A DNA stretch of 64,000 nucleotides from Dehalococcoidia bacterium (GTDB lineage: Bacteria; Chloroflexota; Dehalococcoidia; Lucifugimonadales; UBA2985), in contig OZ244716.1 in NCBI GenBank assembly GCA_965219025.1, forward strand, positions 221,175-285,174, read 5' to 3'. Position 1 is the first letter of the stretch; each line of letters starts with the position of its first letter. Below the pieces are notes generated by a model that was given only the letters and a program-made list of their open reading frames with translations, was not told the origin of the DNA and did no database searches. Below, one piece after another: positions 6,327 to 50,580 of this stretch. Both the position numbers and the translations under genes were made by a program.

Positions 6327-6329
6327 CAG

Positions 6330-14801: not shown

Positions 14802-15791
14802 ATGGAGAACGCTATTTACACCCCAGAGGGCTACACGGATCGAATACGACAAGAGCTCGGAAACTGCCTCATTGAGACGAATCTTTCTCAAGGTGAGAAG
14901 TTCATAGGCAAAGTACGGGATCGATATGATCTTGGGGATCGTATGGTACTCATCACCACCGACCGACAGAGTGCCTTCGACCGGGTGCTGGCCGCTGTCC
15001 CCTTCAAAGGGCAGGTCCTCAACATGACGAGTGCATGGTGGTTTGAACAGACCCGCCATATTGTGCCAAATCAGGTTCTGTCCATCCCCGATCCAAACGT
15101 CACAATTGCCCAAAAATGCACCGTCTTCCCGATTGAGTTCGTGGTGCGTGGATACATCACCGGAACCACGAGCACCTCCCTCTGGACGGTCTACCAGAGT
15201 GGTCGTCGTCACTACTGTGGCATCGATTTGCCCGACGGCCTAACGAAAAACCAGAAGCTCCCGACGAATTACCTCACACCGACTATCAAGGCGGAGGACC
15301 ACGACCGCCCGATCAGCCCTGACGAGATCGTGTCCGAGAACTGGATGACGGCCGAAGATTGGGAACAATGTAGCCGCATCGCGCAGGAACTCTTCGCTTT
15401 CGGTCAAGCCAAGGCAGCCGAACATGGCCTGGTTCTCGTCGATACCAAATATGAGATGGGCCGTGACGAGAACGGTGAGATCCTTCTGATCGACGAGATC
15501 CACACCCCTGACTCTAGTCGCTACTGGATCGCCGACTCTTATCAACAGCGCATGCGGGAGGGACAGGAACCGGACAACGTCGACAAAGAATTCCTCCGGC
15601 TCTGGTTCACGGAGAATTGCAACCCCTACGAGGATGAGGTCCTACCACCAGCACCGAATGACCTTGTAATCGAGCTCTCGAGACGCTACATCTACCTTTA
15701 CGAGACGATCACCGGTCGCTCTTTCGAGTTTCCAGAGGCCGACCAACCGATCGGGACACGTTTGGAAAGCACCCTTGAAGGAATCGCATGA
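14802..15791 (+). CDS. purC: phosphoribosylaminoimidazole-succinocarboxamide (SAICAR) synthase, long form
   Basis: GKVRDRYDLGDRMVLITTDRQSAFDRVL...FVVRGYITGT...LVLVDTKYEMG are SAICAR synthetase motifs. Visibly lower GC than the flanks. Confidence 0.9.
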   Translation: MENAIYTPEGYTDRIRQELGNCLIETNLSQGEKFIGKVRDRYDLGDRMVLITTDRQSAFDRVLAAVPFKGQVLNMTSAWWFEQTRHIVPNQVLSIPDPNVTIAQKCTVFPIEFVVRGYITGTTSTSLWTVYQSGRRHYCGIDLPDGLTKNQKLPTNYLTPTIKAEDHDRPISPDEIVSENWMTAEDWEQCSRIAQELFAFGQAKAAEHGLVLVDTKYEMGRDENGEILLIDEIHTPDSSRYWIADSYQQRMREGQEPDNVDKEFLRLWFTENCNPYEDEVLPPAPNDLVIELSRRYIYLYETITGRSFEFPEADQPIGTRLESTLEGIA

Positions 15792-16027
15792 AGGTATACG
15801 GAGGGCAATGGGGCCAAGGTGATTCCGCTTCCATTTCAATTGGCAGAAAGCCCTCTCCAATGAACATGAAGTGTAGGCTAACCAGGCGCTCAACTTGACC
15901 GAGCCAGCGAAGGTTGTTAGAGTTTTCGCTTCGCTTCGCATACACCGTTAACTCTTCTCCGACGGTTCGTCGCCGGGGCTCGTCAAGTTAGCTTGATCGT
16001 TAAGCCGAAATTGAATCGAGCACAAAA

Positions 16028-16687
16028 GTGAAAAAATACATTCTCTTTGACCACGATGGGGTCTTGGTCGAAACTGAACAGTGGTATTACCTAGCCAACC
16101 AACGCGCGCTGGCATCTCTCGGAATTGATCTCCCACGAGACGCATATTTGGTGAATATGGCCGATGGAGTTTCCGCGTGGGAGGCGGCACGAGTTTCAGG
16201 AATATCCGAGTCTGAAATTAAACGTGGCCGAGAACTAAGAAACCGATACTACCAGGAATACCTGATGACCGAAGACATCGAGATCGAGGGTGTCCTGCCA
16301 ACACTAGCCAAACTCGCTGATAGGTATAGGATGGGTATAGTTACCACATCCAAACGAGCTGACTTCGCCCTGATACACGAAAAGCGATCTATTCTAGACT
16401 ATATGGAATTCTATTTGACTGTGGAGGATTACGAGCGAGCTAAACCACATCCCGAACCCTATCTGAGGGGGCTTCAACGCTTTGGCGCTACTGCCGCTGA
16501 AACGGTGGTTATAGAAGACTCGGCGAGAGGGTTGAAGTCGGCAATAGCGGCGGGTATTGACTGCATCGTGGTTGCAAACGAGTTCACTGCAGCTCACGAT
16601 TTGTCCAAAGCAACTGCCAAGGTCGCTACGTTTAGGGAGTTGCCATCTACTATAAAGGGATTAACAAGTTTAGCCAGGCGACGCTGA
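16028..16687 (+). CDS. HAD-superfamily hydrolase (beta-phosphoglucomutase-like subfamily IA)
   Basis: GTG start. ILFDHDGVLVETE (DxDG motif I), VTTSKR (motif II), VVIEDSARGLKSAIAAGIDCIVV (motifs III/IV). Confidence 0.85.
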   Translation: MKKYILFDHDGVLVETEQWYYLANQRALASLGIDLPRDAYLVNMADGVSAWEAARVSGISESEIKRGRELRNRYYQEYLMTEDIEIEGVLPTLAKLADRYRMGIVTTSKRADFALIHEKRSILDYMEFYLTVEDYERAKPHPEPYLRGLQRFGATAAETVVIEDSARGLKSAIAAGIDCIVVANEFTAAHDLSKATAKVATFRELPSTIKGLTSLARRR

Positions 16688-16739
16688 AAGGCGCGCGCCT
16701 GCCAAAAGCGTTCGGTCTTAGAAAACGAGAGTCATGAAC

Positions 16740-17447
16740 CTATCCCAAAATCTTTGACAGTGTGGTCATGAAGCAGGCGATAGTCAGGAATGCGATGTAG
16801 ACGTCGGTCTGCGGATCGTACCGCACCACCAGCCGACGCCAGTTGCCCAGCCAGCCATGAGTACGCTCCACCTTCCAGCGACACGTGCTGACCGGGTACA
16901 CCTTCGGAGGACGGCCGGTACGCTTGCGTCCAGGCCAATGACGCTGAGGAACCGAGGGACGAATCCCTCGTCGTCGCAGTTCCCGCCGGAACTCTGCGCT
17001 GTCGTAGCTCTTGTCAGCAGTCAACGAGTCAGGTCTCTTCTTGGACCGGCCTCGAGCACGAGGGACGCGAACCCTGTCCACCACATCCAGTCCACTGTCA
17101 CCTCGGATACGCTGGCACCGGTCACATCGAAGGCCAGAGGCAATCCCTCTCCCTCGGTCATCATGTGGACCGTGTTCCCCTTACCCTTCCATCCGTAGTC
17201 GACGTCCTCTCCCCCCTTTGGCTGGGACGAAACTTCCATCCAGGAACGCCTGGCTCCAGTCCAGCCTGCCCTGTTCGTCCAGGGTCCTCAGAACTCTGAG
17301 CCAGGTGTGCTCCCACATTAGCTGCTCATCTGAGAAAGCCGGCTGTTCAGTCATCCAGCCTCGCTTGACTATAGAGCAGGCTAGCTTTACTATGCCACAA
17401 CCGACCAGCATCACCGGAGCTTCAGGTGAGCAGCAGCAACCGGACAT
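16740..17447 (-). pseudogene. decayed IS5-family (IS427/IS1031-like) transposase remnant
   Basis: Transposase-like peptides are spread over three frames. (1) 17181-17447: ...FSDEQ...LDWSQAFLDGSFVPAKGG. (2) 17021-17239: KGGEDVDYGWKGKGNTVHMMTEGEGLPLAFDVTGASVSE. (3) 16740-17084: RGRSKKRPDSLTADKSYDSAEFRRELRRRGIRPSVP...WKVERTHGWLGNWRRLVVRYD. The first frame switch is at CAAAGGGGGG (17211-17220), a plausible slippery run. The second shift and the shortened N-terminal part argue for decay. I could not define inverted repeats. Confidence 0.7.
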
Positions 17448-17470
17448 TCAGATTCAAGGTGTAGGCGATC

Positions 17471-18115
17471 ATGAACAACGAGAAGCTAGCCGGACTGGCC
17501 TTGATCATTCTGGGCGCCGTTATCATGTTCCCCCACATTATTGGCTTCGAACTCTTGTGGCAGTGGTGGCCGCTATTCCCCATTGCCGCCGGGCTAGTCA
17601 GCCTCCGCAATGGCAACTGGAAGGGCGGTTTGATCGTAATCGCGGTTTTCTCCGCGCTCCTTTTCCACAATTTGGGCTATTTCATCATCGACTTTTCGAC
17701 ACTCTGGCCCGTGCTGATCATAGCAATTGGGCTGGCGCTCCTATTCGGCCGCCGGCCCTTCGCTAGAGTCCCGTTCGCCAATGTCGGCCAGTCGCTAGAC
17801 GTCGACAGCATATTCTCCGGCAGTAGACAGAACGCAACCGGGAAGGGATTCACCGGGGGCAACGTATCGGCCACATTCGGCAGCGCCGAAGTCGACCTGA
17901 CCTCCGCCGATATTGTTGACGGCGCGGCCACGGTCAACGCAAGTGTTCTCTTCGGCAGCGTGAGTCTCCGCGTCCCGCAAGACTGGGCAGTCGACATTCA
18001 ATCGTCCGTGATGTTCGGCAGCATTGAGACGAAGCGTCCGGAACCCCCGGAGCCCAAGGCACGGCTTGTGGTCACGGGGTCCTGCTGGTTCGGAGAGATC
18101 CAGGTCACGTCCTGA
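17471..18115 (+). CDS. LiaF-like / DUF2154 membrane protein (cell-wall-stress-response-like)
   Basis: Four N-terminal hydrophobic helices. C-terminal beta-rich region ATFGSAEVDLT...VNASVLFGSVSLRVPQDWAVDIQSSVMFGSIE resembles LiaF C-terminal domains. Confidence 0.6.
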   Translation: MNNEKLAGLALIILGAVIMFPHIIGFELLWQWWPLFPIAAGLVSLRNGNWKGGLIVIAVFSALLFHNLGYFIIDFSTLWPVLIIAIGLALLFGRRPFARVPFANVGQSLDVDSIFSGSRQNATGKGFTGGNVSATFGSAEVDLTSADIVDGAATVNASVLFGSVSLRVPQDWAVDIQSSVMFGSIETKRPEPPEPKARLVVTGSCWFGEIQVTS

Positions 18116-26563: not shown

Positions 26564-26646
26564 ACCTGACGCCATCGTACACACCTCGCCCCTCACCGGC
26601 AGCGCGCTGGGGAATACCAATTGTCAGCAGCCCGCAGCCGCTCTAA

Positions 26647-27872
26647 GGAAACTCTGAATAATGCCCTTGGATTGTGGCATACTGAGGCCAGGCAAGCCAA
26701 GACCGAGGGGGAGTGACCATGACGGACCAGCCAACCTTTGCCGACTTGGAGTACCAACACAAGAAGCGACAGACCCGTCGGGAGGTGTTTCTGAAGCGAA
26801 TCGACACCCTTATTCCTTGGGAGAGGTTGGAGGAGCGCATCCAGTCGCACTACTTTAAGGCGGAACGGGGTCGCCGGCCTTACCCCCTGTCGGTGATGCT
26901 TCGGGTCCACATCGTCCAGCTCTGCTACAACCCCCGCCTTCGCGAGGGCAGGCTCTGAGTGATCCAGGGATGGAGGATCTGTTGTATGAGGCGGAGTCAG
27001 TAAGGCGATTTGCGGGACTGCGTCTAAGCGAGCCGTTGCCTGACGAGAGCACTATCCTGCACTTCCGGCATCTACTGGAGAAGCACGGGCTGGGGGAAGG
27101 GCTGTTTGAGGAGATCAACAGGCATCTGGAAGAGCACGGGGTACGACTGCGAGAGGGAACCATAGTGGACGCCACCATCATAGAAGCGCCGTCCTCCACC
27201 AAGAACCGGGCCGGGGAGCGGGACCCGGAGATGCGTCAGGTGAAGAAGGGGAACCAATACCACTTCGGGATGAAGCTGCACATCGGGGTGGATTCGGAGA
27301 CTGGCTTGGTGCACAGCTTCGCTACCACATCGGCCAACGTGCATGATGTGACCCAGGCTCACCGGTTATTGCATGGTGGGGAGTCCCAGGTGTGGGGGGA
27401 TGCTGCCTACATCGGGGTGCAGAAGCGGGAAGAGCATCTGCAGTTGGCGGTACAGTGGCAGGTGGCAATGAAGCCGGGACAGAGGCGGAAACTGGAACCT
27501 GGGGACCCGGTGGCAATAGGGGAAAAGGTGAAGGCATCTATCCGAGCCAAGGTGGAACACCCCTTTCTGGATGTGAAGAGACTATCGGGCTACGCCAAGG
27601 TACGCTATCGGGGCTTGGCCAAGAACACAGAACGGCTGGCGCTGCTGCTAGGGCTGTCCAACCTGAACCGGGCCCAGGGCCACTTGGCTGGTTGACCCAG
27701 GGGGTAGTGGGCCCAAAAGCGGGGCTGAAGCCACGAAACGGCCGGAGAGGATAGGGCAAAGGACCGAAATTAACCGCACCATCAACAAACAAGACAACAA
27801 CCGGGAGGGCAAGCCTACTTCTGCACCCGGCAATCAATAAATCAGCCCGGCAGCACTTTGTTCAGACCTTCC
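26647..27872 (+). mobile_element. IS5-family (IS5-group) insertion sequence with imperfect terminal inverted repeats and YTAR target duplication
   Basis: IRL is GGAAACTCTGAATAATGCCC (26647-). The reverse complement of IRR is GGAAGGTCTGAACAAAGTGC (ends at 27872). About 14/20 positions match, and IRR resembles the E. coli IS5 end as I recall it. Flanking tetranucleotides are CTAA (26643-26646) and CTAG (27873-27876), matching the IS5 YTAR target. The internal transposase resembles InsH. Confidence 0.85.
26713..27695 (+). pseudogene. IS5/InsH-like DDE transposase, reading frame interrupted
   Basis: ORF1 (26713-26958) reads TFADLEYQHKKRQTRREVFLKRIDTLIPWERLEE...GRRPYPLSVMLRVHIVQLCYN. ORF2 (26970-27695) reads MEDLLYEAESVRRFAGL...GTIVDATIIEAPSSTKN...RDPEMRQVKKGNQYHFGMKLHIGVD...KASIRAKVEHPFLDVKRLSGYAKVRYRGLAKN. 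Together they are collinear with E. coli InsH from memory. The two halves lie in different frames, separated by about 23 extra nt at 26932-26954. Confidence 0.85.
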
Positions 27873-27901
27873 CTAGATTCCTCGACTACGCTTGGAATGA
27901 C
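27873..27901 (-). repeat. REP/MITE-like repeat, family A arm (inverted relative to 26524-26563)
   Basis: ctagattcctcgactacgcttggaatgac; its reverse complement is gtcattccaagcgtagtcgaggaatctag. It abuts the right end of the IS5 element. Confidence 0.6.
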
Positions 27902-27996
27902 TGTGGTTTCTGGCCCCCTAACACTGCGATAGTCGAAGGGTCTGACACTCACCGATAGTCTGCGCGGACGGCCGCGCGTTCCGTTCGCCGCTGAGC

Positions 27997-28278
27997 CTAG
28001 CGCGAGCCGCCCGCAACGGCCGGCACTATGCTGACTTCGTCGCCGGCGCTTATGGCGGTCTCCAGGCCCTCCAGGAACCGCACGTCCTCGCCGTTGACGT
28101 AGATGTTTACGAAATGGCGCAGGTCCCCCGCTTCATCGCACAGCCGCTCCTTAAGGCCGGGGTACTGGGCCTCCAGCGATTCTATGATCTGCACCAGGTT
28201 ATCCCCGTCCACGGACGCCTTGTCCTGGCCGTTGGTCACCCTGCGCAGCGGAGTGGGTATTCGAACAACTACGCTCAT
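27997..28278 (-). CDS. CysO/MoaD/ThiS-family sulfur carrier protein, C-terminus ...AVAGG-SR
   Basis: [46 protein letters not shown]...[40 protein letters not shown]. From memory this is nearly collinear with M. tuberculosis CysO (..IPT.LR...GQ...GD.L...I.DLEA.Y.G..ERL...RFVNIYVN.EDVRF..GL.TAI..GD.V.I.PAVAGG). I prefer the ATG at 28278 to the track start at 28311. Confidence 0.85.
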
Positions 28279-28332
28279 CTGGCAATCCTCCTGGGCCTCT
28301 ATGCCTTTCACTTCAGCGCAATAGGGCCTGTG

Positions 28333-28575
28333 TTAGCTCTCGATCACGTCCCCGCTGACCGGATCGACTCTGACGCCCATCGACATGACCCAGTCCAGCC
28401 CGCTTTCGATTTCCTCGTCCTCACCCTCAAGCTCCAGAATCACCCAGCCCACGTCCTCTCTAACGTCCGCCCTGCGGATGTTAGTGACCACGCGGAACTT
28501 GTGTCCCAGGTCGAAGATCACGGGTTCAGTGACGAGGTCGGTGGGAAAGGTGAACTTGGCCCTTCGCTTAGCCAT
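28333..28575 (-). CDS. stand-alone NIL-domain protein (80 aa)
   Basis: FPTDLVTEPVIFDLGHKFRVVTNIRRADVREDVGWVILELEGEDEEIESGLDWVMSMGVRVDPV matches the NIL domain pattern (the NI(L/R) signature, as in MetN C-terminal domains). Confidence 0.75.
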   Translation of the reverse strand: MAKRRAKFTFPTDLVTEPVIFDLGHKFRVVTNIRRADVREDVGWVILELEGEDEEIESGLDWVMSMGVRVDPVSGDVIES

Positions 28576-28617
28576 TTGCTGCCCCTTCCATTGGTGATCG
28601 GGAATTCCGAGGCCGGC

Positions 28618-29901
28618 TCACGGCCTCACGCTCAGGGCCTCTTCGAACGAGGCGAAGGTGGGCTTGATGAGCACGGGCCTCACTGTGTCCTCCACCACTT
28701 CCTGCGTCTTGTAGCCGTTGCCCGTGATGAAGGCCACGGTGGTCTCCCACGGCTTGATCTGCCCCGAACGGGCCAGCCTCTTCAGCGAGGCTATCACCAC
28801 GCCGCCGGCCGGCTCCGTGAATATGCCCTCCATCTCCGCAAGCTCCTTGATGCCCTCCGCGACCTCCTCTTCCGGCACGGCGCACCCCGAGCCTCCCGTA
28901 GCCTCCAGGACCCTCAGCGCAAAGTAGCCGTCGGCGGGGTTGCCGATGGCCAGCGACTTGGCGATTGTGTTGGGCTTCACCGGCCTGATTGCGAAGTCGC
29001 CTGCCTCGTAGGCCGCCACGATGGGCGCGCATCCCTCCGCCTGGCAGATGAACATCTTGGTGCTGACATCGCCGATCAGCCCTGACGACGAGAACTCGTT
29101 CAGGCCCTTCCATATCTTGGTGAACAGCGAGCCGGACGCGCCCGGCACGATGCAGTTGTCGGGGGCCCGCCAGCCCAGCTGTTCCGCCACTTCGAATCCC
29201 AGGCTCTTGCTGCCCTCGGCGTAGTAGGGCCGCATGTTGATGTTCACAAAGGCCCAGTTGTAGTTGTCCGAAAGCTCGCTGCACAGCCTGTTCACGTCGT
29301 CGTAGCTGCCGTCCACGGCAACGAGCGTTGCGCCGTACACCGCCGCGCCCAGTATCTTCCCTCGTTCGAGGTCTGCGGGAATGAACACGAAGGCTCGCAT
29401 CCCGGCCCGCGCTGCGTGGGCGGCCACGCTGCCCGCAAGGTTGCCCGTGGAAGCGCACGCAAGCGTGTCGAACCCGAACTCTCGCGCCTTGGTGCTGGCC
29501 ACGGCGACCACCCGGTCCTTGAAGGAGAACGAAGGGTTCACCGCGTCGTTCTTGAGGTAGAGCTCATCCAGGCCGAGCGACCTTGCCAGGTTATCCGCCT
29601 TGATGAGCGGCGTGTAGCCGGCGTTGATGTCGATGGCGTTCTCGGCCTCCGCGGGCAGGAAGTCGTGATAGCGCCACATGGAGTGCGGCCCGCTCTCGAT
29701 TCGCTGGCGGGAGATCACACCGGAGATGGCGTCGTAGTCGTAGGTGACCTCCAGCGGCCCGAAGCAGAAGTCGCAGACGTTGAGAGGCTCGGCAGGATAC
29801 TCCCTGCCGCACTCCTTGCAGAACAGGCCTTTCACGTAGCTCACGGAACGGAGTCCTCCCCGGCTGCCCGCCGACCGACAGTTGCAGATGGCCTGCGCCA
29901 C
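28618..29901 (-). CDS. threonine-synthase-family PLP enzyme with N-terminal zinc ribbon (ThrC-like; true substrate uncertain)
   Basis: CKECGREYPAEPLNVCDFCFGPLEV zinc ribbon; NPSFSFKDR PLP-lysine motif; ACASTGNLAGS; GNPADG. A GTG at 29844 preceded by GGGGAGGA (giving VSYVKGLFCKECG) is a plausible alternative start to the ATG at 29901. Confidence 0.9.
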   Translation of the reverse strand: MAQAICNCRSAGSRGGLRSVSYVKGLFCKECGREYPAEPLNVCDFCFGPLEVTYDYDAISGVISRQRIESGPHSMWRYHDFLPAEAENAIDINAGYTPLIKADNLARSLGLDELYLKNDAVNPSFSFKDRVVAVASTKAREFGFDTLACASTGNLAGSVAAHAARAGMRAFVFIPADLERGKILGAAVYGATLVAVDGSYDDVNRLCSELSDNYNWAFVNINMRPYYAEGSKSLGFEVAEQLGWRAPDNCIVPGASGSLFTKIWKGLNEFSSSGLIGDVSTKMFICQAEGCAPIVAAYEAGDFAIRPVKPNTIAKSLAIGNPADGYFALRVLEATGGSGCAVPEEEVAEGIKELAEMEGIFTEPAGGVVIASLKRLARSGQIKPWETTVAFITGNGYKTQEVVEDTVRPVLIKPTFASFEEALSVRP

Positions 29902-29919
29902 TAGCGCAAGCTGCGCTTG

Positions 29920-29948
29920 ATGTTACAAGAGGCAGATATGGGTGTCAA
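29920..29948 (-). promoter_or_regulatory. candidate sigma70 promoter for the ThrC-like operon (TTGACA-17-TAACAT on minus strand)
   Basis: Reverse complement of 29943-29948 is TTGACA, then a 17-nt spacer, and the reverse complement of 29920-29925 is TAACAT. Confidence 0.45.
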
Positions 29949-29954
29949 GGCAAG

Positions 29955-29990
29955 CCATCCTTGCAACACCATCACGCCTCACCTATAATC
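29955..29990 (+). repeat. 36-bp perfect direct repeat, copy 1 (contains TTGCAA-17-TATAAT promoter)
   Basis: ccatccttgcaacaccatcacgcctcacctataatc is identical to 31488-31523. -35 at 29961-29966 and -10 at 29984-29989. About 19 further nt downstream match roughly 14/19. Confidence 0.95.
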
Positions 29991-30091
29991 GGCTATACCC
30001 AAACGCCGGACTGATGGCCGGTACGATAGGGCTGCGTTGCCAAGCCTGGTTGGCTGCGGTGACGAAGGCGGGACAGAGCAAGGCCGTATAG

Positions 30092-30508
30092 ATGGTGACC
30101 GAGTCTGAAGCGAGTCGTGTGCTGGAGGAGCTCAAGGTCATTGGGGCTAACCTCTCTTGGCAGAATGACGGAGAGACTCTTCGTCTCGAGGCAACCGTCC
30201 TTTGCCTGGCATCCCAGGAAGTGCTCAAGCTTCGCGGGTTTGTTGGGCGGACGAACCGGAGCTTTGCATTGCTTTACCGGAATGCACCAATTCGCAAGTA
30301 TACAGTTCACGCATCGCACACAGATCCAGTAACTCGAATACGCATAACAGGGCCACACAAGCATACTTGGGATGATGAGTGGGAAGACAAGAGGGTATAT
30401 GTCCCAAGTGACATCCGAATTGGCGACCCCAATGAAGAGCTACTGGACTTCTTGAAGGAGTGCAACATCGAGTTATGGGGTGCGTATACGCAGGTGCTCT
30501 TCCCTTAG
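30092..30508 (+). CDS. hypothetical 138-aa protein with GPHKHTW motif
   Basis: ATG ORF and first gene of the cassette. C-terminal half reads HASHTDPVTRIRITGPHKHTWDDEWEDKRVYVPSDIRIGDPNEELLDFLKECNI. I cannot name a family. Confidence 0.6.
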   Translation: MVTESEASRVLEELKVIGANLSWQNDGETLRLEATVLCLASQEVLKLRGFVGRTNRSFALLYRNAPIRKYTVHASHTDPVTRIRITGPHKHTWDDEWEDKRVYVPSDIRIGDPNEELLDFLKECNIELWGAYTQVLFP

Positions 30509-30535
30509 CCGACAGATCATTGAGAAGGTGTCGAC

Positions 30536-31318
30536 GTGGCATTCGGAAGCTGTGCAGATGCAATTGAAAGCTATCTGGCCCATCTGAGGGGAGAATTCAC
30601 TGCCTCCCAATTTCAGGGCGGGTGCCTGCTGTCTACGCCCTTCGTTCGGCCTGATGGCGAGGGCATCGAACTGGAAGTTCAGATTGTGCAATCTGGACGC
30701 ATTCAAATCAACGATCTCGGGAACACGCTAGGCTACCTCTACATTAATGGGATCACGTTGAGCGGACCGCTGATGGCAAACGCCCGCCTGATTTCCAAAG
30801 CTCATGGTGTTTCAATCCTAAGAAACCGGCTGAGCATTGAGGTTGACGCTGATTTTCTTGGAATGGCAATACAAGGGCTTATACAGGCGTCACTTGGAGT
30901 AGTCGATCTGATCCACAAACGCCGGCCGACCTCTAGAGTGAACTTCGACGACGAGGTTGAGTCCGTCATAATCCGAAGTGGCGTTGCCTATGACGTCGGC
31001 TATGCTGTGCCCGGCAAGCGCGAACAGCATACAGTTCGATTCCACGTCAACTCCGGGCGCAATCTCTTGTTTCACCCGCTGTCTCCCGCGAGTGCATCGG
31101 CCGCTCGCAGTTGGGCTGAACGTCTCGCCTACAGGTTCACCGATATCCTAAACGGAGACGACCGCTGGCATCCGTATGCGATTCTTGATGACCGCGGCGC
31201 TAGGGAAGGGGTGTGGAGCTCCCATGCTCTCGTGCCATTGGCGGAATACGCCATCATGTGGTCGCAACGAGACAGCCTCGTTTCCGCCTTGGAGTGGAGC
31301 GGTAGCCCTCCATACTAG
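30536..31318 (+). CDS. DUF1828/DUF1829-like hypothetical protein (260 aa)
   Basis: GTG start 27 nt after the previous stop. The N-terminal pattern CLLSTPFVRPDGEGIELEVQIVQSGRIQINDLGNTLGYL resembles DUF1828 as I recall it (..TPF.d...d.i.iyv......i.lsDdG.T...L). The length fits a DUF1828+DUF1829 two-domain protein. Confidence 0.6.
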   Translation: MAFGSCADAIESYLAHLRGEFTASQFQGGCLLSTPFVRPDGEGIELEVQIVQSGRIQINDLGNTLGYLYINGITLSGPLMANARLISKAHGVSILRNRLSIEVDADFLGMAIQGLIQASLGVVDLIHKRRPTSRVNFDDEVESVIIRSGVAYDVGYAVPGKREQHTVRFHVNSGRNLLFHPLSPASASAARSWAERLAYRFTDILNGDDRWHPYAILDDRGAREGVWSSHALVPLAEYAIMWSQRDSLVSALEWSGSPPY

Positions 31319-31487
31319 AAGCCGCCACGTCGGAGACCGTCTGAAACTCACGTCCCTCGTCTTGCGCTCTCGTCGAAGTTTGCAAGGGCTAATATTTTGC
31401 GCCCGGACAAGGCCATCAAGGCGCGTGGGAGCTTCGCAGGTCGCTCCGGAAACTTCAGCGGATCCCCGCTGGAATTCCGCCTCCACC

Positions 31488-31523
31488 CCATCCTTGCAAC
31501 ACCATCACGCCTCACCTATAATC
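31488..31523 (+). repeat. 36-bp perfect direct repeat, copy 2 (aspS promoter TTGCAA-17-TATAAT)
   Basis: Identical to 29955-29990. -35 at 31494-31499 and -10 at 31517-31522. The aspS start is 35 nt downstream. Confidence 0.95.
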
Positions 31524-31557
31524 CGCTGGACTCACACGCCGGTTCGAGAGGTATGCC

Positions 31558-33357
31558 TTGCTGAAATCCGTTAGCTGCGGCGCGCTTCGCATCGAGGACG
31601 AGGGCCGTGAGGTCACGCTCGCGGGCTGGGTCCACCGCCGGCGCGACCACGGCGGTCTCGTGTTCATCGACCTGCGGGACTGGCGAGGCATCGTGCAGGT
31701 GGTGTTCAACCCGCAGGTAGCGCCGGACGCCCATGAAGCTGCCCAGAGCCTCCGCAGCGAGTGGGTGCTTCGCGTGCGCGGCGTCGTCGGCCAGAGGCCG
31801 CCCGGCACAGCAAACCCCAACATCCCAACAGGAGACGTGGAGGTCGTCGCAGCGACCCTGGAGGTCCTCAACCCGTCAATTACGCCTCCGTTCAGCCTCG
31901 AAGATGAGGCCGCAGAGGCCGACGAACTGGTCAGGCTCAGGTATCGCTACCTCGACCTGCGGCGGGCAGCCATCCGCGACAACCTGTTCCTGCGTCACCG
32001 GGTGGTCAAGTACATACGCGACTTCCTCTCAGAGCTGGAGTTCATCGAGGTGGAGACGCCAATCCTCACCAAGAGTACGCCGGAGGGCGCGCGGGACTAC
32101 CTGGTGCCCAGCCGGATTCATCCTGGCCAGTTCTACGCCCTGCCCCAGTCGCCGCAGCAGATGAAGCAGCTGCTGGTCATGGGCGGCGTGGAGCGTTACT
32201 TCCAGATCGCTCGCTGCTTCCGCGACGAGGACCTGCGGGCCGACCGCCAGCCGGAGTTCACGCAGCTGGACCTGGAGATGGGCTTCGTCGATGAGAGCGA
32301 CGTGCTAGAGCTTATGGAGCAGCTGTTCACGGGCCTTGCGGAGACGATTGTGCCCCACAAGCGCCTGCTCAAGCCCTTCCCAAGGCTCGCCTACGCCGAC
32401 GCGATGGACCGCTATGGCTCCGACAAGCCCGATCTGCGATTTGGACTGGAGCTTTCCGTCCTGTCGGACATAGCCGCAGAGTCGAATTTCCAGGTGTTCA
32501 AGAATGCGGTCGAGTCGGGCGGCGTCGCCAAAGGACTGGCCGCTCCCGGATGCGCATCGCTCCCTCGCCGCCAGGTGGACGCGCTGACCGACATGGCGCG
32601 CGAGCGCGGCGCGTCCGGTCTCGTGACCATCGCCCTCGACGGCGACCCTGACCACTCCCTGGACGACCTGACGGAGGACGAGTTTCGCTCGCCCGCGGCC
32701 CGCTACCTGACCACGGACGAGGTCAAGCGACTGGCTGCCCGCATGAACGCCTCCCGCGGCGACCTGCTGCTGATTGTGGCGGGCCCGCGCGAGAGCGTCG
32801 ACAATGCGCTCGGCGGCCTGCGGGTCGAGATGGGACGGCGGCTGGAGCTTGCGGACCCGGACCTGCTTGCATTCGGTTTCATCGTCGACTTCCCGCTGCT
32901 GGAGTGGAGGCCTGACGAGAACAGGTGGGACTCTCCCCACAACCCGTTCTCATCGCCCAAGGACGACCACCTGCCGCGGATGGATTCCGATCCCGGCTCG
33001 GTGCTGGCCAAGCAGTACGACCTTGTGTGCAACGGCATGGAGCTTGCCGGCGGCAGCGTGCGCAACCATCGCCGTGAGATCCAGGAGCGCGTGTTCGAGC
33101 TGTTGGGCCACAGCCGCGAGGCGATGCAGGAGCAGTTCGGTCAGATACTGGACGCGCTGGAGTACGGCGCTCCGCCCCACGGCGGCTTCGCCAGCGGAAT
33201 CGACCGCGTGGTCATGCTCGTTGGCGGCGTCGACAGCATCCGCGAGGTGATGGCCTTCCCCAAGACGCAGAGCGCCGTGGACCCGCTGTTCGGCGCACCG
33301 TCCCCCGTTTCGGAGCAGCAGCTGCGTGACCTCCACATACGCGTGGTTGGCGAGTAG
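31558..33357 (+). CDS. aspS: aspartate--tRNA ligase
   Basis: TTG start. VTLAGWVHRRRDHGGLVFIDLRD (OB anticodon-binding domain), FYALPQSPQQMKQLL, FQIARCFRDEDLRADRQPEFTQLD (motif 2), GGFASGIDRVVM (motif 3). Confidence 0.97.
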   Translation: MLKSVSCGALRIEDEGREVTLAGWVHRRRDHGGLVFIDLRDWRGIVQVVFNPQVAPDAHEAAQSLRSEWVLRVRGVVGQRPPGTANPNIPTGDVEVVAATLEVLNPSITPPFSLEDEAAEADELVRLRYRYLDLRRAAIRDNLFLRHRVVKYIRDFLSELEFIEVETPILTKSTPEGARDYLVPSRIHPGQFYALPQSPQQMKQLLVMGGVERYFQIARCFRDEDLRADRQPEFTQLDLEMGFVDESDVLELMEQLFTGLAETIVPHKRLLKPFPRLAYADAMDRYGSDKPDLRFGLELSVLSDIAAESNFQVFKNAVESGGVAKGLAAPGCASLPRRQVDALTDMARERGASGLVTIALDGDPDHSLDDLTEDEFRSPAARYLTTDEVKRLAARMNASRGDLLLIVAGPRESVDNALGGLRVEMGRRLELADPDLLAFGFIVDFPLLEWRPDENRWDSPHNPFSSPKDDHLPRMDSDPGSVLAKQYDLVCNGMELAGGSVRNHRREIQERVFELLGHSREAMQEQFGQILDALEYGAPPHGGFASGIDRVVMLVGGVDSIREVMAFPKTQSAVDPLFGAPSPVSEQQLRDLHIRVVGE

Positions 33358-33438
33358 CGGCGGCGTGCAGTTCACCGCTTCACAATCCGGCAACTGTGCG
33401 CTTATAATTGAAGGCACAGTCCCTATCAGGAGTCGTCC

Positions 33439-34794
33439 GTGAAAGTATCCCTGCTTGAAGAGGCCCAGAGCCAGGTTGTGCTTAGCATTGAGGTTGAGCC
33501 GCCCGAGCTGGATGAGCATCTCGACAGGGTCTACCGCCGGGCGGTGCAGCGCGTGAACATTCCCGGCTTTCGGAGAGGCAAGGCGCCGCGTTCCGTCGTG
33601 GAGCGAGAGCTTGGCCGGGACGCAATGGTGGAAGACGCGCTGGACACACTCCTGCCGCAGATCACGTCAATGGCAATCCAGGAACGGGAGTTGGACGTGA
33701 TCTCACTGCCCAAGGTGCGAGTCACCGAGTACGACCCTCTCATGGTCGAGGTCACGGTTCCCGTCAGGCCCGCCATCGACCTTGGCGACTACTACAGCTA
33801 CCGCGTCGAGCAGGAGAGCGTGGAAGTCGCGCCGGAGGCCGTGGACGAGCTGATTGACTCCATGCGAGAGGACGCCGGAACGTGGGAGCCCGTGGAGCGC
33901 TCCGTGGCCCTGGACGACCTCGTCACTCTCGAGGTACGCGGCCTGGTGGAGGAAGAGGTGGTCATCGAAGAAGAGCGAGTGGACTATCGCGTTTCGGCGG
34001 ACTCCACGGTACCTATGCCCGGCTTTGCCGACCGGCTCGTCGGCCTCAACCGGGACGAAGAGCAGCAGTTCTCGCTGCCCTTCCCTGACGACCACCCGCA
34101 GGAAAGCTGGGCGGGCAAGGAGTGCGCCTTCACGCTCACTGTGCACGAGGTAAAGGAGCGCAAGCTGCCGGACCTGGACGACGAATTCGCCAAGAGCCTC
34201 AATGCAGAAGTGGACTCCGTGCCGGCGTTGCGCGACAAGTTCCAGGAAGACCTGCTCAGGCGCAACCGGCTCATCGCTGACCAGACCTACCAGGAGAATG
34301 CTGTCCAGGCGCTGGTGGAAGGTTCAAAGATAGAGGTCCCGCCTCTACTTATCGACCACGAGATCGAGCACATAATCTCCGAGCAGCAGGAGGCCCTCCA
34401 GCGCCAGCAGGTGAGGATGGAGGACTACCTGAGCACCATCGGCAAGAGCGTGGAGCAGATACAGGAGGAGCTTCGGCCGTCGGCGGCCGATCGCATCACG
34501 CGCACGCTTATCCTCGGCGCACTCCGCGAGAAGGAGGGCATCGAGGTGACGCCCGAGGAGATAGACGAGGAGATTGAGTCTATGCTCGGGGAGTCGGAGG
34601 CCGCGACCGATTCCATGAGGCAGATGCTGGAGGGATCGCGAAACTCCATCGGCACCATGCTTCTCAATCGCAAGACCCTGGAGCGGCTCACAGCCATCAC
34701 CAAGGGCGAGGCCACCGAGCCCCTGCCGGCCGCGGCGAGCCCGACCGGCGAAACATCCGAAGAAGAAGAAAGCGAACCCGAAGAAGGAGCCTGA
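33439..34794 (+). CDS. tig: trigger factor
   Basis: [16 protein letters not shown] ribosome-binding signature; PPIase-like middle domain; acidic C-terminus. Conserved tig-clpP-clpX order. Confidence 0.93.
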
Positions 34795-34795
34795 C

Positions 34796-35413
34796 ATGCT
34801 TTACCCACCGCGTGACATTGTGCCCATGGTCATCGAAACCGGCGCCCGAGGCGAGCGCGCCTTCGACATCTACTCCCTGCTGCTCCGGGAGCGCATCATC
34901 TTCCTGGGCACGCCAATTCACGACCAATTGGCCAACGTCATCGTTGCGCAGCTGCTGTTCCTGGAGCGGGAGGACCCGGACAAGGACATAAGCCTGTACA
35001 TCAACTCGCCCGGCGGCGTCATAAGCTCTGGTCTAGCCATCTACGACACCATACAGCTGGTGAAGCCGGACGTGTCCACCATCTGCGTGGGCCTCGCGGC
35101 CAGCATGGGCACAGTGCTCCTCTGCGCCGGCGCCAAGGGAAAGCGGTATGCCCTGCCCAACTCCACCATCCACATGCACCAGCCGATGGGCGGCGCTCAG
35201 GGTCAGGCATCGGACATCGAGATCGCCGCACGGGAGATTCTGCGAATGCAGGACAAGATTCGCACGATCATCTCCGACCACACCGGGCAGTCCTACGAAA
35301 GGGTCGCCGGAGACACCGACCGGGACTACTACCTCAATGCTGAGCAGGCCATGGATTACGGCCTGGTAGACGAAGTGCTGGCCAAGGCGCAAGTAGAGAG
35401 CGCCGCCACCTAG
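34796..35413 (+). CDS. clpP: ATP-dependent Clp protease proteolytic subunit
   Basis: [30 protein letters not shown]...GLAASMG (active-site Ser)...IHMHQP. Confidence 0.97.
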
Positions 35414-36753: not shown

Positions 36754-37371
36754 CTAGGCCGGTCTAATCCGCTTTGCCATGAAGATGTCCGGCTTGCCGA
36801 AGCCGTTGGCGTCCGGCAGCACTCCTACGATCGTGAAGCCGACCTTGCGATAGAACTCGTAGGGGTGGGCGTTGAGGTTGCGGATGCGCGCCAGGTGGCC
36901 AAGAACGTCATCGTACAGCTCGATGCCGCCCAGCGTCGTCTGGTTGTCCTCGTCTTCGGTGCCCAGCCAGATCGTGACGCCGCCTCGCTCCCGCACCCTG
37001 GCCTCGATGTCGGTGACCAGCCTGCGGCCAAGGCCCAGCCTCTGACGCTCCGGCCTCACCACCAGCGGATGCAGCTCCCATGCGAATCCATCGTACGCAC
37101 GGATCGCGCCCACCCAGCCAATGACCGTTCCGTCTCCGTCCACGGCTATACGGCTTATGCGACCCTCCGCAAAGAACTCCTCCACCTCAGTCCTGGCCGA
37201 CGCCATATCCGGCCATGCCGCCGGATGGTGCTCCATGAACACCTCGTACAGCAGCGTGGCGCACTGCTCGACGGCGGAGGCGTTGTCCGGCAGCAGGTCC
37301 ACGATGGGCAGTTCTGGCTCGTTCAACTCCACCTCCGACCTAAAGAAATCTACGCCGCCTGCGAATCTCAA
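36754..37371 (-). CDS. GNAT-family N-acetyltransferase
   Basis: LHPLVVRPERQRLGLGRRLVTDIE is the acetyl-CoA-binding motif A (Q/RxxGxG/A). Confidence 0.8.
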   Translation of the reverse strand: MRFAGGVDFFRSEVELNEPELPIVDLLPDNASAVEQCATLLYEVFMEHHPAAWPDMASARTEVEEFFAEGRISRIAVDGDGTVIGWVGAIRAYDGFAWELHPLVVRPERQRLGLGRRLVTDIEARVRERGGVTIWLGTEDEDNQTTLGGIELYDDVLGHLARIRNLNAHPYEFYRKVGFTIVGVLPDANGFGKPDIFMAKRIRPA

Positions 37372-37468
37372 CCTTACCAGAATCGATTGTCATGAAACCC
37401 CCTGTCAAGTATGATCCGACCATTCCTCCCTGCGAGAAGCGTGACCGGCAACAGGTTGATGGGGTAGC

Positions 37469-38038
37469 CTATCTATAGTCGGCCACCTTCTCACGTAGCC
37501 TGTGGAGCGGTATGGCGTCACCTGTTTCTATTAAGGTGGCAATGCCTCCTTCCACGCTCCACATTCCCCTGGAATAGCCTTGTACCACGTAGTGCCCCTC
37601 CCGCTCAATCAGGAACAGGACATACTTCTGGCCGACCTCAAATACCATGCGTTCCAGGTGTTCGTCTCCGCTGTACCCGACTCCGCCACTAGTAGGTTTT
37701 CTCGCCTTGATGACGAGGCTAGAAGGTGCATGTCCCTTGTAGGTATCCAGAACGCTCAGGTTCATTGTCTCGAGCAAGCGGACGGGCCAGGGCGTGACTT
37801 CGTCACTCTTCGCCGTGATCTCGCCCAAGACCACAGTGTCCGAATACCTGGCTACGTTATGGAAGGACGGCCGAGTCATAGGCAACTCGGCAGCTATCCG
37901 GCCTGTGTATCCCGCGTCTGTGGTGCGTGGAAGCTGATCCCAATCGTAGCGAAAAATGTTGAACACCACGAGTAGGCCCGTGGTCAGGAGAATCAGAAAG
38001 CCAAACAATAGCAGAGCTGCGTTCACCAATCGTCCCAT
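37469..38038 (-). CDS. membrane-anchored hypothetical protein (189 aa)
   Basis: N-terminal TM anchor AALLLFGFLILLTTGLLVVF. Lower GC than neighbours. No recognised family. Confidence 0.5.
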   Translation of the reverse strand: MGRLVNAALLLFGFLILLTTGLLVVFNIFRYDWDQLPRTTDAGYTGRIAAELPMTRPSFHNVARYSDTVVLGEITAKSDEVTPWPVRLLETMNLSVLDTYKGHAPSSLVIKARKPTSGGVGYSGDEHLERMVFEVGQKYVLFLIEREGHYVVQGYSRGMWSVEGGIATLIETGDAIPLHRLREKVADYR

Positions 38039-38184
38039 GCAAATTGCTCGTCAAGTGTACAGAGTGTTTGGATATGGTACAACAACTAGTGGGTGAATGA
38101 ACCTCCGGGAACTCCGCACAGGTCCCGGAGGCCTGACTGAATGGAGGTGAGCGCCGTGAGACCCAAACCTCTTCCTCCGGACCG

Positions 38185-38988
38185 TCAGCCCGCGTCCCGG
38201 ATGGCCCTCTCGACCGCATCGTTGAGGCAGAGACCATCAATCGAATTGCCCGCGCCGTCCACCACTTGCCTCTCCACTACGCGCACCCGGCCACTGGCAA
38301 ACGCCTTCAGCGTTTCGAGCACCAGCGGACGCTCCCGCTTAACGCCCTCCTCACGGATGAGGCGGAACAGCGGCTGCTCCTCGCCCTCGGAGGCCCGCAG
38401 CTCCTCGACACTGCGACCATCGATCTGCCGCCACAGGTCGTCAAACTCTCCGTCTCGTATGCGAAATGAGCAGTATGTCAGTACCGGTCCCCTGTCCAAG
38501 TCCTCGGTCGCAAGATGCATGTGCGACCCTGCCTCCTTTGCGCCCTCCGCGATGAGGCTCCATATCACTTCCTGCCACGTGCCCACGGGGCCGCCAGGCA
38601 GCGCCGGATGCAGGTTGAGCATGGTGTAACGGTTGCACAGCTCCCCGGCCGTGATGAGCATGTAGCCGGCCAGCACGCACACGTCGGGTCGGTACCGCTC
38701 CAGGAGGCGCATGACCTTTCTGTCGAACTGCTTGCGATGCCGCGAGAAGGGGCCTCCGCCCTGTTCCCTGCGGAATCGCTGAGAGGACAGCGTGACCAGG
38801 GGCGTGACGTATTCCTCCACCTGGCGGAAGAAGCGGTCGCTGCCCTCGGCCTCTCCCGGTTCGCGGTTGCTGAAGACGAACTCCATCCGGGCCGAAAGCT
38901 CCCCGCTCGCGATTGCGTCCTGCATGGTCCGGAGCAGCCCCAGTGAGCCCTCACCTCGCCCAGTCGAAAACCAACCCAGCTTCAGCAT
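38185..38988 (-). CDS. formyltransferase-family protein (PurN-like N-terminal domain with C-terminal extension)
   Basis: LGWFSTGRGEGS...PDVCVLAGYMLI...MLNLHPALPGGPVG...HLATEDLDRGPV matches the formyl_trans_N catalytic N-H-D pattern. Confidence 0.75.
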   Translation of the reverse strand: MLKLGWFSTGRGEGSLGLLRTMQDAIASGELSARMEFVFSNREPGEAEGSDRFFRQVEEYVTPLVTLSSQRFRREQGGGPFSRHRKQFDRKVMRLLERYRPDVCVLAGYMLITAGELCNRYTMLNLHPALPGGPVGTWQEVIWSLIAEGAKEAGSHMHLATEDLDRGPVLTYCSFRIRDGEFDDLWRQIDGRSVEELRASEGEEQPLFRLIREEGVKRERPLVLETLKAFASGRVRVVERQVVDGAGNSIDGLCLNDAVERAIRDAG

Positions 38989-49594: not shown

Positions 49595-50070
49595 CCGCCC
49601 TGTATCCAGGCAGCTTTGACCCCATAACCTTTGGGCACATGGATATTGCTACGAGGTCGGCCGCGCTCTTCGACAAAGTGTACGTTGCCGTGGTGGACAC
49701 CCGCTCCTCCAAGTCAATCATGTTCAACACCGAAGAACGTCTGGAGCTTTGCAAGAACGCCCTCTGCGACTTCCCCAACATCGAGGTCATTCCATACACC
49801 GGACTCACAGTGAACCTGGCGCACAAGCTGGGAGCCGCCGTTATGGTCAGAGGGCTCCGCATGGGTTCCGACTTCGAGTATGAGTGCGAGATGGCTCTCA
49901 ACAATCAGAAGTTGGCGTCGGACGTGGACACACTCTACCTGATGGCCAGCCTGGACCACATCTACATAAAGTCCAGTCTCATCAAGGAAATTGCGGCCGG
50001 GGAAGGCAATATCAGCCACCTGGTCCCAAATAATGTGGCGGTAGCCCTTCGGGACAGATATCGCTCCTGA
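49588..50070 (+). CDS. coaD: phosphopantetheine adenylyltransferase
   Basis: ALYPGSFDPITFGHMDI...VRGLR...DFEYE...SSLIKEI. Confidence 0.96.
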   Translation: MVTALYPGSFDPITFGHMDIATRSAALFDKVYVAVVDTRSSKSIMFNTEERLELCKNALCDFPNIEVIPYTGLTVNLAHKLGAAVMVRGLRMGSDFEYECEMALNNQKLASDVDTLYLMASLDHIYIKSSLIKEIAAGEGNISHLVPNNVAVALRDRYRS

Positions 50071-50100
50071 GCTTAGGCGCCGCCTGAAAGGTGGATAGCC

Positions 50101-50580
50101 ATGAACATTGCCAGTCTTATGGAGAAGCTGGAGGAACTGGTCAGTACCGGCACGGGGGTTCCCGCAACCGGGAAGGTACTTGTCGACAAGGAGAAGATGG
50201 CGGAGCTTGTGAGCCAGATACAGTCCGCCCTTCCGGCAGACCTCCAGGAGGCCCAGGAGTTTCTTCAGATGCGGGAGAACCTCATCAACCAGGCTCTGTC
50301 CGAGGCGCGACGAATCAGGACGTCCTCCGAGGATGAGGCTCGCTCCCGCGTGAAGGAGAGCGAAGTTCTCAGGGAGGCCCACAAGCAGTCAGAGGACATT
50401 GTAGCCGAGGCCCAACGAAGAGCACAGCGGGTTCTGGAAGAAGCGGACATGCAGGCCAACTCACGGCGAGCGGACGCCGACAGATACGCTCAGGCCACTC
50501 TCACGAAGCTGGAAGAGGAGCTGTCCAATGTCCTCACCACCATCCGGCACGGCATCGATGCCATGTCCACGGCCAGATAG
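50101..50580 (+). CDS. coiled-coil hypothetical protein (159 aa)
   Basis: ATG ORF downstream of coaD. Highly charged heptad-like sequence (EARRIRTSSEDEARSRVKESEVLREAHKQSEDIVAEAQRRAQ). No enzymatic motif. Confidence 0.6.
   Translation: MNIASLMEKLEELVSTGTGVPATGKVLVDKEKMAELVSQIQSALPADLQEAQEFLQMRENLINQALSEARRIRTSSEDEARSRVKESEVLREAHKQSEDIVAEAQRRAQRVLEEADMQANSRRADADRYAQATLTKLEEELSNVLTTIRHGIDAMSTAR

Follow-up and report, generated by a model that had tools for sequence, protein, structure and literature searches.

A PDC-M24-type gene pair between two copies of the aspS promoter at an insertion hotspot of uncultured Dehalococcoidia

Chromosomal defence hotspots have been described between core genes of Escherichia coli, often without any recognisable mode of mobilisation (Hochhauser et al., 2023, PMC10121019), and core defence hotspots are likewise known in Pseudomonas aeruginosa (Johnson et al., 2023, PMC10250203); how defence islands enter and leave such sites where no mobility function can be identified is an open question (PMC10121019). 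The locus considered here lies in a stretch of 64,000 nucleotides (nt) of a Dehalococcoidia bacterium (assembly GCA_965219025.1, contig OZ244716.1, positions 221,175 to 285,174 of the forward strand), called the window below, to whose positions all coordinates refer unless another locus is named. It consists of a 1.5-kb cassette of two genes that match the profiles of the candidate defence pair PDC-M24, set between a ThrC-like gene and the aspartyl-tRNA synthetase gene aspS and bracketed by two copies of the aspS promoter. The locus is like the E. coli and P. aeruginosa hotspots in its fixed place between housekeeping genes, in a cargo that differs between close relatives and includes defence-type genes, in that insertion sequence (IS) elements land at the site too, and in that a mobility gene is, as often there, absent. 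It is unlike them in that the site is a 12-nt spacer between divergent promoters, in that the cargo is partly of a non-defence kind (lipoprotein, CAP-domain), and in that the occupant is bracketed by a duplication of the promoter and first codons of a flanking gene; PMC10121019 makes no mention of direct repeats. What is unusual here is that a housekeeping promoter and the 5' end of a coding sequence are duplicated on the flanks, and that this recurs with different cargo, which bears on the way in which such islets enter. With a probability of roughly 0.55, we read the whole as a PDC-M24-type cassette in an insertion hotspot, which would have entered by Campbell-type, homology-driven integration and been modified by later gene conversion. 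The locus may be described as a defence-type islet in a core-gene hotspot, of candidate function and proposed mechanism, with a mechanistically informative end structure.

The locus and its two flanking genes are composed as follows (ORF, open reading frame; aa, amino acids).

28618..29844, minus strand: ThrC-like pyridoxal-phosphate (PLP) enzyme gene (Pfam PALP, 6e-70), the left conserved flank
29920..29948, minus strand: promoter-like site of the ThrC-like operon (TTGACA-17-TAACAT)
29955..29990, plus strand: left aspS promoter core (-35 hexamer at 29961-29966, -10 hexamer at 29984-29989), the presumed promoter of the cassette
29991..30058, plus strand: decayed aspS leader, start codon and approximately the first 8 codons (14 of 19 nt match beside the core)
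30092..30508, plus strand: cassette gene 1 (ORF1), 138 aa, PDC-M24A- and DUF6978-like by profile matches
30536..31318, plus strand: cassette gene 2 (ORF2), 260 aa, PDC-M24B-like with an N-terminal DUF1828, by profile matches
31319..31487, plus strand: non-coding 3' part of the cassette, in which the block of high identity with the related locus L033 ends at about 31464
31488..31523, plus strand: right aspS promoter core (-35 hexamer at 31494-31499, -10 hexamer at 31517-31522), followed by the true leader
31558..33357, plus strand: aspS, with a TTG start and the ribosome-binding site (RBS) GAGAGG at 31546-31551 (Pfam tRNA-synt_2, 3.9e-115; GAD; OB-fold), the right flank

Two exact copies of the 36-mer CCATCCTTGCAACACCATCACGCCTCACCTATAATC are present in the window, at 29955-29990 and 31488-31523, as an earlier reading of the sequence alone (hereafter the sequence-only reading) had stated to the base; no further match with up to three mismatches was found in the window, and 0 of 100 dinucleotide-preserving shuffles gave any. 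When extended without gaps, the repeat reaches 55 nt at 91% identity, with 14 of the 19 nt beyond the 36-mer matching, and this similarity past the core is significant, its score having been reached in 1 of 2000 shuffles. Each copy carries TTGCAA-17 nt-TATAAT, with 10 of 12 consensus positions, and the -10 hexamer of the second copy ends 35 nt ahead of the TTG start of aspS at 31558, so the near-consensus promoters that had been pointed out in both copies hold as sequence matches. The right copy is identical to the single promoter of the related locus L001 at 33 of 36 positions, the first 3 nt falling at the boundary of an IS element in L001. The insert (29991-31487) had also been judged by eye to be richer in AT, and its composition could indeed be told from that of its surroundings: its GC content is 0.556 vs 0.631 in the window (z = -2.15), 37 of 596 segments of the same size (6%) being equally low, and its tetranucleotide distance is within the top 8% (16 of 199 segments). 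GC content by itself sets the insert apart only moderately, and GC content at third codon positions (GC3) is a much better separator, at 0.58 and 0.59 in the cassette genes and at 0.85, 0.88, 0.81 and 0.83 in aspS, the ThrC-like gene, tig and clpP. Between the repeat copies there is neither an integrase nor a transposase according to the Pfam domains of both ORFs, again as first reported.

Other stretches of the window have a low GC3 as well (0.49-0.66, for a median of 0.79), so the cassette is not the sole atypical DNA there. These are 14802-17766, with a purC-like gene, a HAD hydrolase gene and one gene of no assigned family; 37469-38038, an ORF of 189 aa in a segment (37326-38186) that has no alignment to L002 or L019; 46419-48809, which encodes a 796-aa protein with a weak PPC domain; and 49714-50382, an ORF of 222 aa.

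The region was compared with its relatives, covered at about 16-18 kb each. Orthologues of aspS were found in 23 Dehalococcoidia/Chloroflexota loci, and aspS puts the window in an uncultured Dehalococcoidia clade, with a nucleotide identity to the window of 94.5% in L001, 88.9% in L002, 88.3% in L003, 87.6% in L019, 85.8% in L016 and 83.7% in L033. On the left, a synteny block with the ThrC-like gene, the first gene of a ThrC-like/NIL/ThiS operon with the NIL and ThiS genes downstream, is present in L001, L002, L016, L019, L038 and L039; its orthologues begin with MSYVKGL, which corresponds to 29844 in the window. In all relatives with both flanks, this block ends at 29954, 6 nt beyond the -35 hexamer of the ThrC-like promoter. 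The right block begins at 31483-31491 in L001, L002 and L019 and at 31546 in L016, while L003 provided the right flank only. Between the two blocks, the content differs genome by genome: a 1.1-kb IS481-like element in L001; 1.8 kb with genes for a Pro/Thr-rich lipoprotein and a 209-aa protein in L002; 5.2 kb coding for an IS1595 transposase, an N6/N4 methyltransferase-HNH fusion and a 305-aa protein in L019; and 3.9 kb with CAP-domain, NYN and 291-aa genes in addition to the cassette in L016. Defence-type cargo at this site comprises, in this small sample of genomes, PDC-M24 in four lineages, the methyltransferase-HNH fusion in L019 and the NYN gene, a weak HEC-09 match, in L016; the remaining cargo consists of CAP-domain, lipoprotein and unassigned genes.

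When its IS element is removed, L001 reads TGTCAA-GGCGAGGTGTCC-TTGCAA, collinear with the ThrC-like flank and left core of the window, whose left junction reads TGTCAA-GGCAAGCCATCC-TTGCAA, and we take L001 without its IS to be, in its nucleotide sequence, the exact empty site. The left core of the window occupies the position of the single promoter in this empty site, and its 12-nt spacing from the ThrC-like -35 hexamer is the same in the L001 empty site, L038 and L039. The sequence-only reading had supposed that, without the insert, the ThrC-like operon and aspS would form a compact divergent promoter pair, and had proposed a search among relatives for an empty site or for other cargo: L001 without its IS does present the two promoters back to back, 12 nt apart, and other cargo was found in L002, L019 and L016. 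The opposite outcome, in which all relatives would carry the same two genes and no repeat, was not observed, since the content differs between them. With core-gene flanks that are conserved, contents that differ in close relatives and an empty site among them, we hold it close to certain, on this comparison, that the ThrC-like/aspS spacer of this clade, which separates two divergent promoters, is a hypervariable hotspot of insertion.

The IS481-like element of L001 (6806-7930 of that locus) sits exactly within the 12-nt spacer between the ThrC-like and aspS -35 hexamers, so a second kind of mobile DNA uses the same spacer. Its ends read ..CTCGTTCAG / CTGAACGAG.., with a possible 5-bp target duplication TGTCC, and it is probably frameshifted, since its HTH_32 and rve_3 ORFs are in different frames.

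The cassette itself was recovered elsewhere at the same position. L038 and L033 are 99.8% identical over their 1470-nt overlap and were therefore counted as one lineage; this lineage and L039 have the layout of the window, namely the ThrC-like gene, left copy, ORF1, ORF2, right copy and aspS. Together with L016, three further lineages thus have it in this place. At third codon positions, the differences between the window and L033/L038 amount to 0.043 in ORF1 and 0.065 in ORF2 vs 0.359 in aspS and 0.284 in the ThrC-like gene; between the window and L039, they are 0.094 and 0.130 in the cassette vs 0.297 in aspS and 0.237 in the ThrC-like gene. Against the cassette-free L001, the values are 0.135 in aspS and 0.098 in the ThrC-like gene, and against L016 they are 0.446 in ORF1, 0.300 in aspS and 0.257 in the ThrC-like gene. 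The divergence of the cassette between the window and L033/L038, far below that of the flanks, indicates a recent exchange of the cassette; these third-position differences make the cassette tree discordant with the host tree, and the cassette copy common to the window and the L033 lineage dates from after the window and L001 had split. In the 100-nt profile, the drop in identity, from about 96% to about 83%, coincides with the right promoter copy; high identity extends over approximately 29976-31464 with L033 and 30095-31295 with L039, and such differing exchange breakpoints fit homologous recombination rather than a fixed crossover at an attachment (att) site. That the cassette is foreign DNA, horizontally exchanged at the hotspot, appears from these divergences to be close to certain, and the horizontal acquisition first suspected from composition is supported by the contrast between cassette and flanks.

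Such independent recoveries also bear on the reading of the repeat as a target duplication made by a transposon or a miniature inverted-repeat transposable element (MITE), or as a mis-assembly at a repeated promoter. IS elements are indeed nearby, one of the IS5 family at 26646-27872 of the window and the IS481-like element in this very spacer of L001. A duplication of 36 to about 100 nt nevertheless far exceeds those made by transposases, the cassette ends have no terminal inverted repeats and no transposase domain is found, while mis-assembly is opposed by the same layout having been assembled independently in at least three other samples or metagenome-assembled genomes (MAGs), these being L033/L038, L039 and, with a deletion, L016. 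Through these assemblies and the structure of the ends, both variants are effectively refuted and retain a minimal probability. The IS5-family insertion (ORF 26970-27695; DDE_Tnp_1, 1e-28, and DUF772) lies between an AAA_33 gene and the ThiS/NIL/ThrC-like operon; the whole 1.2-kb element is missing in L001, whose alignment is continuous there. An integron cassette, marked by an attC site at its end and an intI/attI platform nearby, was considered as well and rejected: 31310-31490 contains no structured element (z = -0.72, not significant) and no Rfam match, and no integrase was found in the ORFs of 27000-35000, with Pfam run on some window ORFs. In 29500-31800 there is no Rfam family, and in the whole window no tRNA or tmRNA.

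An alignment of all copies shows the left ones to be 5' fragments of aspS of differing length. They reach approximately codon 8 in the window, L038 and L039, codon 4 in L016 and codons 18-23 in L019, and they have a common left end at the edge of the conserved promoter. In the window, the part of the decayed copy that reads GTTGGCTGCGG can be aligned with aspS codons 5-8. The decayed leader hardly differs between the window, L033/L038 and L039 and, as it falls within a block with 97% identity between lineages, moves together with the cassette. The L016 left copy still resembles the RBS, start codon and about 4 codons of aspS. In L019, positions 6895-7019 and 7929-8055 form a direct duplication of 127 nt at 90% identity, with the aspS promoter, leader and approximately the first 18-23 codons; it brackets other cargo, a gene of 266/305 aa on the opposite strand with a Cys-rich N-terminus, a membrane segment and no assigned family. 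The L019 left copy adjoins the 3' end of this gene, 5 nt past the stop codon. A 291-aa homologue in L016 sits directly left of the left promoter copy there, and the 305-aa and 291-aa genes meet the promoter via a common AGTATATCAC motif. Read from this alignment, the repeat is what has been best preserved of an older and longer duplication, one of about 100 nt with the aspS promoter, leader and first codons. The degraded extension past the 36-mer, to which the sequence-only reading had drawn attention, is thus real, but its interpretation as an att-type site is not retained, since it is the remnant of that longer duplication.

The perfect identity of the two cores in the window has a history of its own. 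In L038/L033 and L039, the left core departs from the right one at 6-8 of its 36 positions. L038 and L039 have in their left cores a common cassette-linked spacer, ACGGCCCA(C/T)CGCC, which is not that of their right cores; among left cores, only that of the window has the resident spacer, of the right-copy/L001 type. Between the left cores of the window and L038, 8 of 36 positions differ, all in the first 20, identity resumes from CGCCTCACCTATAATCGGCT, and the cassette that follows is 97% identical. The confinement of these differences to the first 20 nt and the resident spacer mark the perfect 36-mer as secondary and private to the window; it would most simply result from a later short right-to-left gene conversion, or from a crossover ending before 29991. 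The motif TATAATCGG was tried as a marker of left copies and rejected, the right copies of L033 and L039 carrying it too. Likewise rejected as a promoter duplication was a 93-nt inverted match of L008, which lies within two paralogous small ORFs. This match (6309-6401 / 7890-7982, 81%) is upstream of aspS; the two ORFs, of 122 and 147 aa, have a common motif, ..VTALVDTGA.YSMLPS.., that resembles a retropepsin-like protease, and one such paralogue is found directly upstream of aspS in the L006-L008/L020 group.

Non-autonomous elements flanked by att sites have a recombinase-defined core, usually at the 3' end of a tRNA or tmRNA gene, and the comparable cases reportedly include cis-mobilisable elements derived from integrative and conjugative elements (ICEs), the decayed cargo islands beside the tycheposons of Hackl et al., and the ssrA-targeted islands of Dehalococcoides. 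The present cassette would be of this kind if it had been integrated at the promoter core by a tyrosine or serine recombinase encoded in trans. Like such elements, it has a cargo free of recombinases between direct repeats (36 nt perfect, 55 nt at 91%) that come from the target gene, the repeat restores the function of the target, and occupancy varies, several lineages using the same site; moreover, two independent duplications, around the cassette and around the L019 cargo, have a common left end. Unlike them, it targets a protein-coding gene, at the promoter and 5' end, and the extents of duplication vary: right ends at about codon 4, 8 or 18-23 do not define a single core. Exchange breakpoints also differ between pairs of lineages, and neither the window region nor the variable region of 9 related loci, those of L001, L002, L016 and L019 included, yielded a cognate integrase, IS transposases being the only enzymes of mobility there. 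An equally good account of the shared left end is that conservation between different occupants is limited to this one sequence and stops there, and the more distant cassette homologues at other loci are not flanked by repeats. Site-specific integration is, on balance, decidedly improbable.

A different history is suggested by the age of the duplication. The cassette could have arisen with a single ancient duplication and been inherited vertically, with losses in L001, L002 and L019, through recombination between the copies or some other rearrangement, and replacement of alleles at occupied sites. Indeed, left and right copies are about 78% identical over 60 nt in L033 and L039, which makes the duplication old; the breakpoints between the window and L033 (about 29976 and 31464) are internal to the left-right interval, and the 23 nt ahead of the right core are as divergent as the flanks, as replacement at an occupied site would have it; and the cassette is present in L033 and L016, the most basal lineages of the clade. 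This scenario however needs at least three independent losses, and, since the cassette shared with L033 (0.04-0.065) is younger than the window/L001 split (0.10-0.135), an added loss in L001. It leaves the independent 127-nt duplication of L019, with its other cargo, unexplained, and the window/L001 pair comes near to a counter-case, with near-identical flanks around a foreign cassette in one and an empty site in the other. We consider it unlikely.

In L016, the cassette has been shortened (7030-8001 of that locus): the left copy and ORF1 are followed by ORF2 cut after about 133 codons and joined some 12 nt before the RBS of aspS. The right promoter copy is deleted, and the best promoter-like site upstream of aspS is the left copy (10 of 12 positions), a weaker match (9 of 12) being found inside ORF1. 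As aspS is essential, the loss of the right copy in L016 argues that the left one is a working promoter, and aspS appears from this arrangement to be transcribed only through the cassette remnant, from the upstream duplicated promoter.

With regard to the cargo, the two genes that the sequence-only reading had correctly placed between the copies are not wholly without a suggested function, as it had supposed, because both match PDC-M24 profiles. ORF1 matches PADLOC PDC-M24A (PDLC04533, E = 3e-10, residues 1-132 of 138) and, under the cut-off, Pfam DUF6978 (1.1e-5); ORF2 matches PADLOC PDC-M24B (PDLC04539, E = 1.3e-15, residues 6-251 of 260; PDLC04540, 6.8e-15) and Pfam DUF1828 (1.5e-6). The PDC systems are 145 candidates, nominated since their homologues are embedded in BREX, DISARM or type I restriction-modification (RM) loci (Payne et al., bioRxiv 10.1101/2024.01.29.577857). 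As in PDC-M24, the A and B genes are adjacent, 27 nt apart, on the same strand and in the same order; unlike in the nominating loci, the pair here stands alone beside a housekeeping gene, and the profile similarity is moderate. The same pair occurs in L034, L037, L039 and L040-L042, and it is kept together at unrelated loci elsewhere, beside nuoA, nusA and GMC oxidoreductase genes. For ORF1, a small His/Cys-rich protein, 110 homologues were found; H73, H76, H89, K90, H91, W93, E123 and C124 are invariant in the family, and the AlphaFold2 model is that of a beta-rich protein, predicted with very high confidence (pLDDT 96, pTM 0.90), with no fold match in the PDB (best Foldseek E = 0.1); on this model, it may represent an undescribed metal-binding or catalytic fold. 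For ORF2 (pLDDT 88), the Foldseek matches are weak and all to PD-(D/E)xK-type nucleases, namely Can2 (E = 7.7e-3), AF1548, XisH, Mus81 and McrC, and a PD-(D/E)xK nuclease fold is possible for the C-terminal half of the model. A nuclease-based defence or toxin-like function of the pair is a reasonable inference.

Searches of PDB sequences, NCBIfam and PHROGs with both proteins returned nothing informative, and neither protein belonged to a toxin or antitoxin family by Pfam, NCBIfam or PDB sequences, the pair not qualifying as a type II toxin-antitoxin system. No cassette homologue was found on plasmids, and homologues in phages were distant, at 28-30% identity (Halorubrum virus Humcor1 and two Streptococcus satellite phages). 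Scans of JGI metagenomes with ORF2 peptides and with a degenerate promoter-core pattern, and of IMG/VR viral sequences with ORF2, gave nothing; an exact look-up returned no record for the aspS and ORF2 products of the window, and no functional study was found in the literature on PDC-M24, DUF1828 and DUF6978. Around the distant cassette homologues (L034-L037), there was no convincing flanking repeat, L034 having short pairs of 15-25 nt at chance level and L035-L037 none of at least 16 nt, which indicates that the promoter duplication is specific to the aspS-linked cassettes and not to the gene family. Non-coding similarity with these homologues was absent except for a few nt before the ATG of ORF1, so that the boundaries of the cargo could not be narrowed.

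Five features have to be explained jointly at this locus: the absence of a recombinase, the duplication of the promoter with a variable number of aspS codons, the fixed left end, and the two cargo junctions, the right end of the left copy being joined directly to the far end of the cargo and the right side of the cargo being contiguous with the right promoter. Circles integrate by Campbell-type single crossover via cloned homology, as with suicide plasmids. We propose that a circular DNA carrying about 100 nt of aspS 5' homology integrated by such a crossover and thereby duplicated the homology; the circle would be a circularised fragment of neighbouring DNA, running from the cargo to a point inside aspS, of which the recipient would share only the promoter-to-aspS stretch. 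The left end would be common to all copies because genomes do not have the same sequence ahead of the promoter, and the promoter junction of the L019 gene, also seen in L016, is the product expected of single-crossover integration of a circularised fragment. The reverse crossover between the copies would remove the cassette and leave the empty site, and spread between diverged lineages could proceed by recombination at the locus, with no recombinase of its own; a short conversion or crossover from the right to the left copy would later have made the cores identical in the window. As in a Campbell-type product, the homology is duplicated in direct orientation around the insert, and the left copy stops at the limit of the homology, where it meets the far end of the inserted DNA. 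Unlike in the suicide-plasmid case, the event would be a natural one, through very short homology (36-130 nt) and by way of a hypothetical circle, and the locus has no plasmid backbone. Taken alone, this Campbell-type step has about even odds, judged from the junctions.

Several points weigh against the combined reading. The Campbell-type step is deduced from the end structures alone, with a circle that is itself postulated, and a homology arm of 36 to about 130 nt, partly diverged, is close to the shortest that RecA-dependent exchange tolerates. Cores that are reciprocal hybrids are expected of a single crossover; both cores of the window are of the resident type, so an extra conversion or a donor with an identical core is needed. 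In the window itself, the similarity of the left copy to aspS past 55 nt is marginal (121 of 2000 shuffles). An inherited duplication with repeated loss and allelic replacement would explain much of the pattern with no insertion into an empty site, and a trans-acting recombinase, improbable as it is, has to be set against an integrase negative that covers about 16-18 kb per relative. Both promoter copies are consensus matches, from which activity is inferred; PDC-M24 is a guilt-by-embedding candidate, which leaves an anti-phage role of the cassette a presumptive one; and none of the fold matches of ORF2 reaches E <= 0.001.

The promoter copy at the right end of the cassette would keep aspS expressed and the left copy would drive the cassette, with a predicted 5' untranslated region of about 95 nt before ORF1. 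A remnant frame of 23 codons (30037-30108) starts at the decayed TTG of aspS, encodes ..LVGCG.. vs ..SVSCG.. in aspS, and overlaps the ATG of ORF1 (30092) by 17 nt; as ORF1 has no clear Shine-Dalgarno sequence, translational coupling with this frame is conceivable. As the stretch from ORF2 to the right copy contains no predicted terminator, transcripts from both predicted promoters may run into aspS. A hairpin, CAGCGG-ATCC-CCGCTG, is found at 31456-31471, 17 nt ahead of the right copy; the block of high identity with L033 ends within it, and, having no T-run, it is not a typical terminator. The left copies that precede ORF1 all keep both hexamers, and that of L019, which faces the end of a convergent gene, has TATTAT, a single base change that lends weak support to promoter use. 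Tentatively, and with some doubt, the housekeeping promoter could be viewed as a portable homology arm, which would express the cargo, restore the expression of aspS, and serve as the site at which the recombination machinery of the host excises the cassette as a circle and re-inserts it into the same promoter of diverged lineages. If true, this would amount to a recombinase-free, promoter-targeted movement of small defence modules, of which the 127-nt duplication of L019 would be a second product.

With respect to the manner in which defence islands enter and leave hotspots, this locus offers an unusually clean small example, with an exact empty site and the same 1.5-kb cargo in several diverged lineages at one position defined to the nucleotide, and with ends whose structure suggests entry by single crossover through short promoter homology. 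It also gives a defined context to the candidate pair PDC-M24, whose small subunit has a confidently predicted fold lacking a match in the PDB and whose large subunit is maybe a nuclease. L016 constitutes a natural deletion variant, in which an essential tRNA synthetase gene is apparently transcribed only through the remains of a cassette. Should the proposed mechanism be true, short conserved promoters of essential genes could be natural landing pads in organisms where classical mobile elements are lacking.

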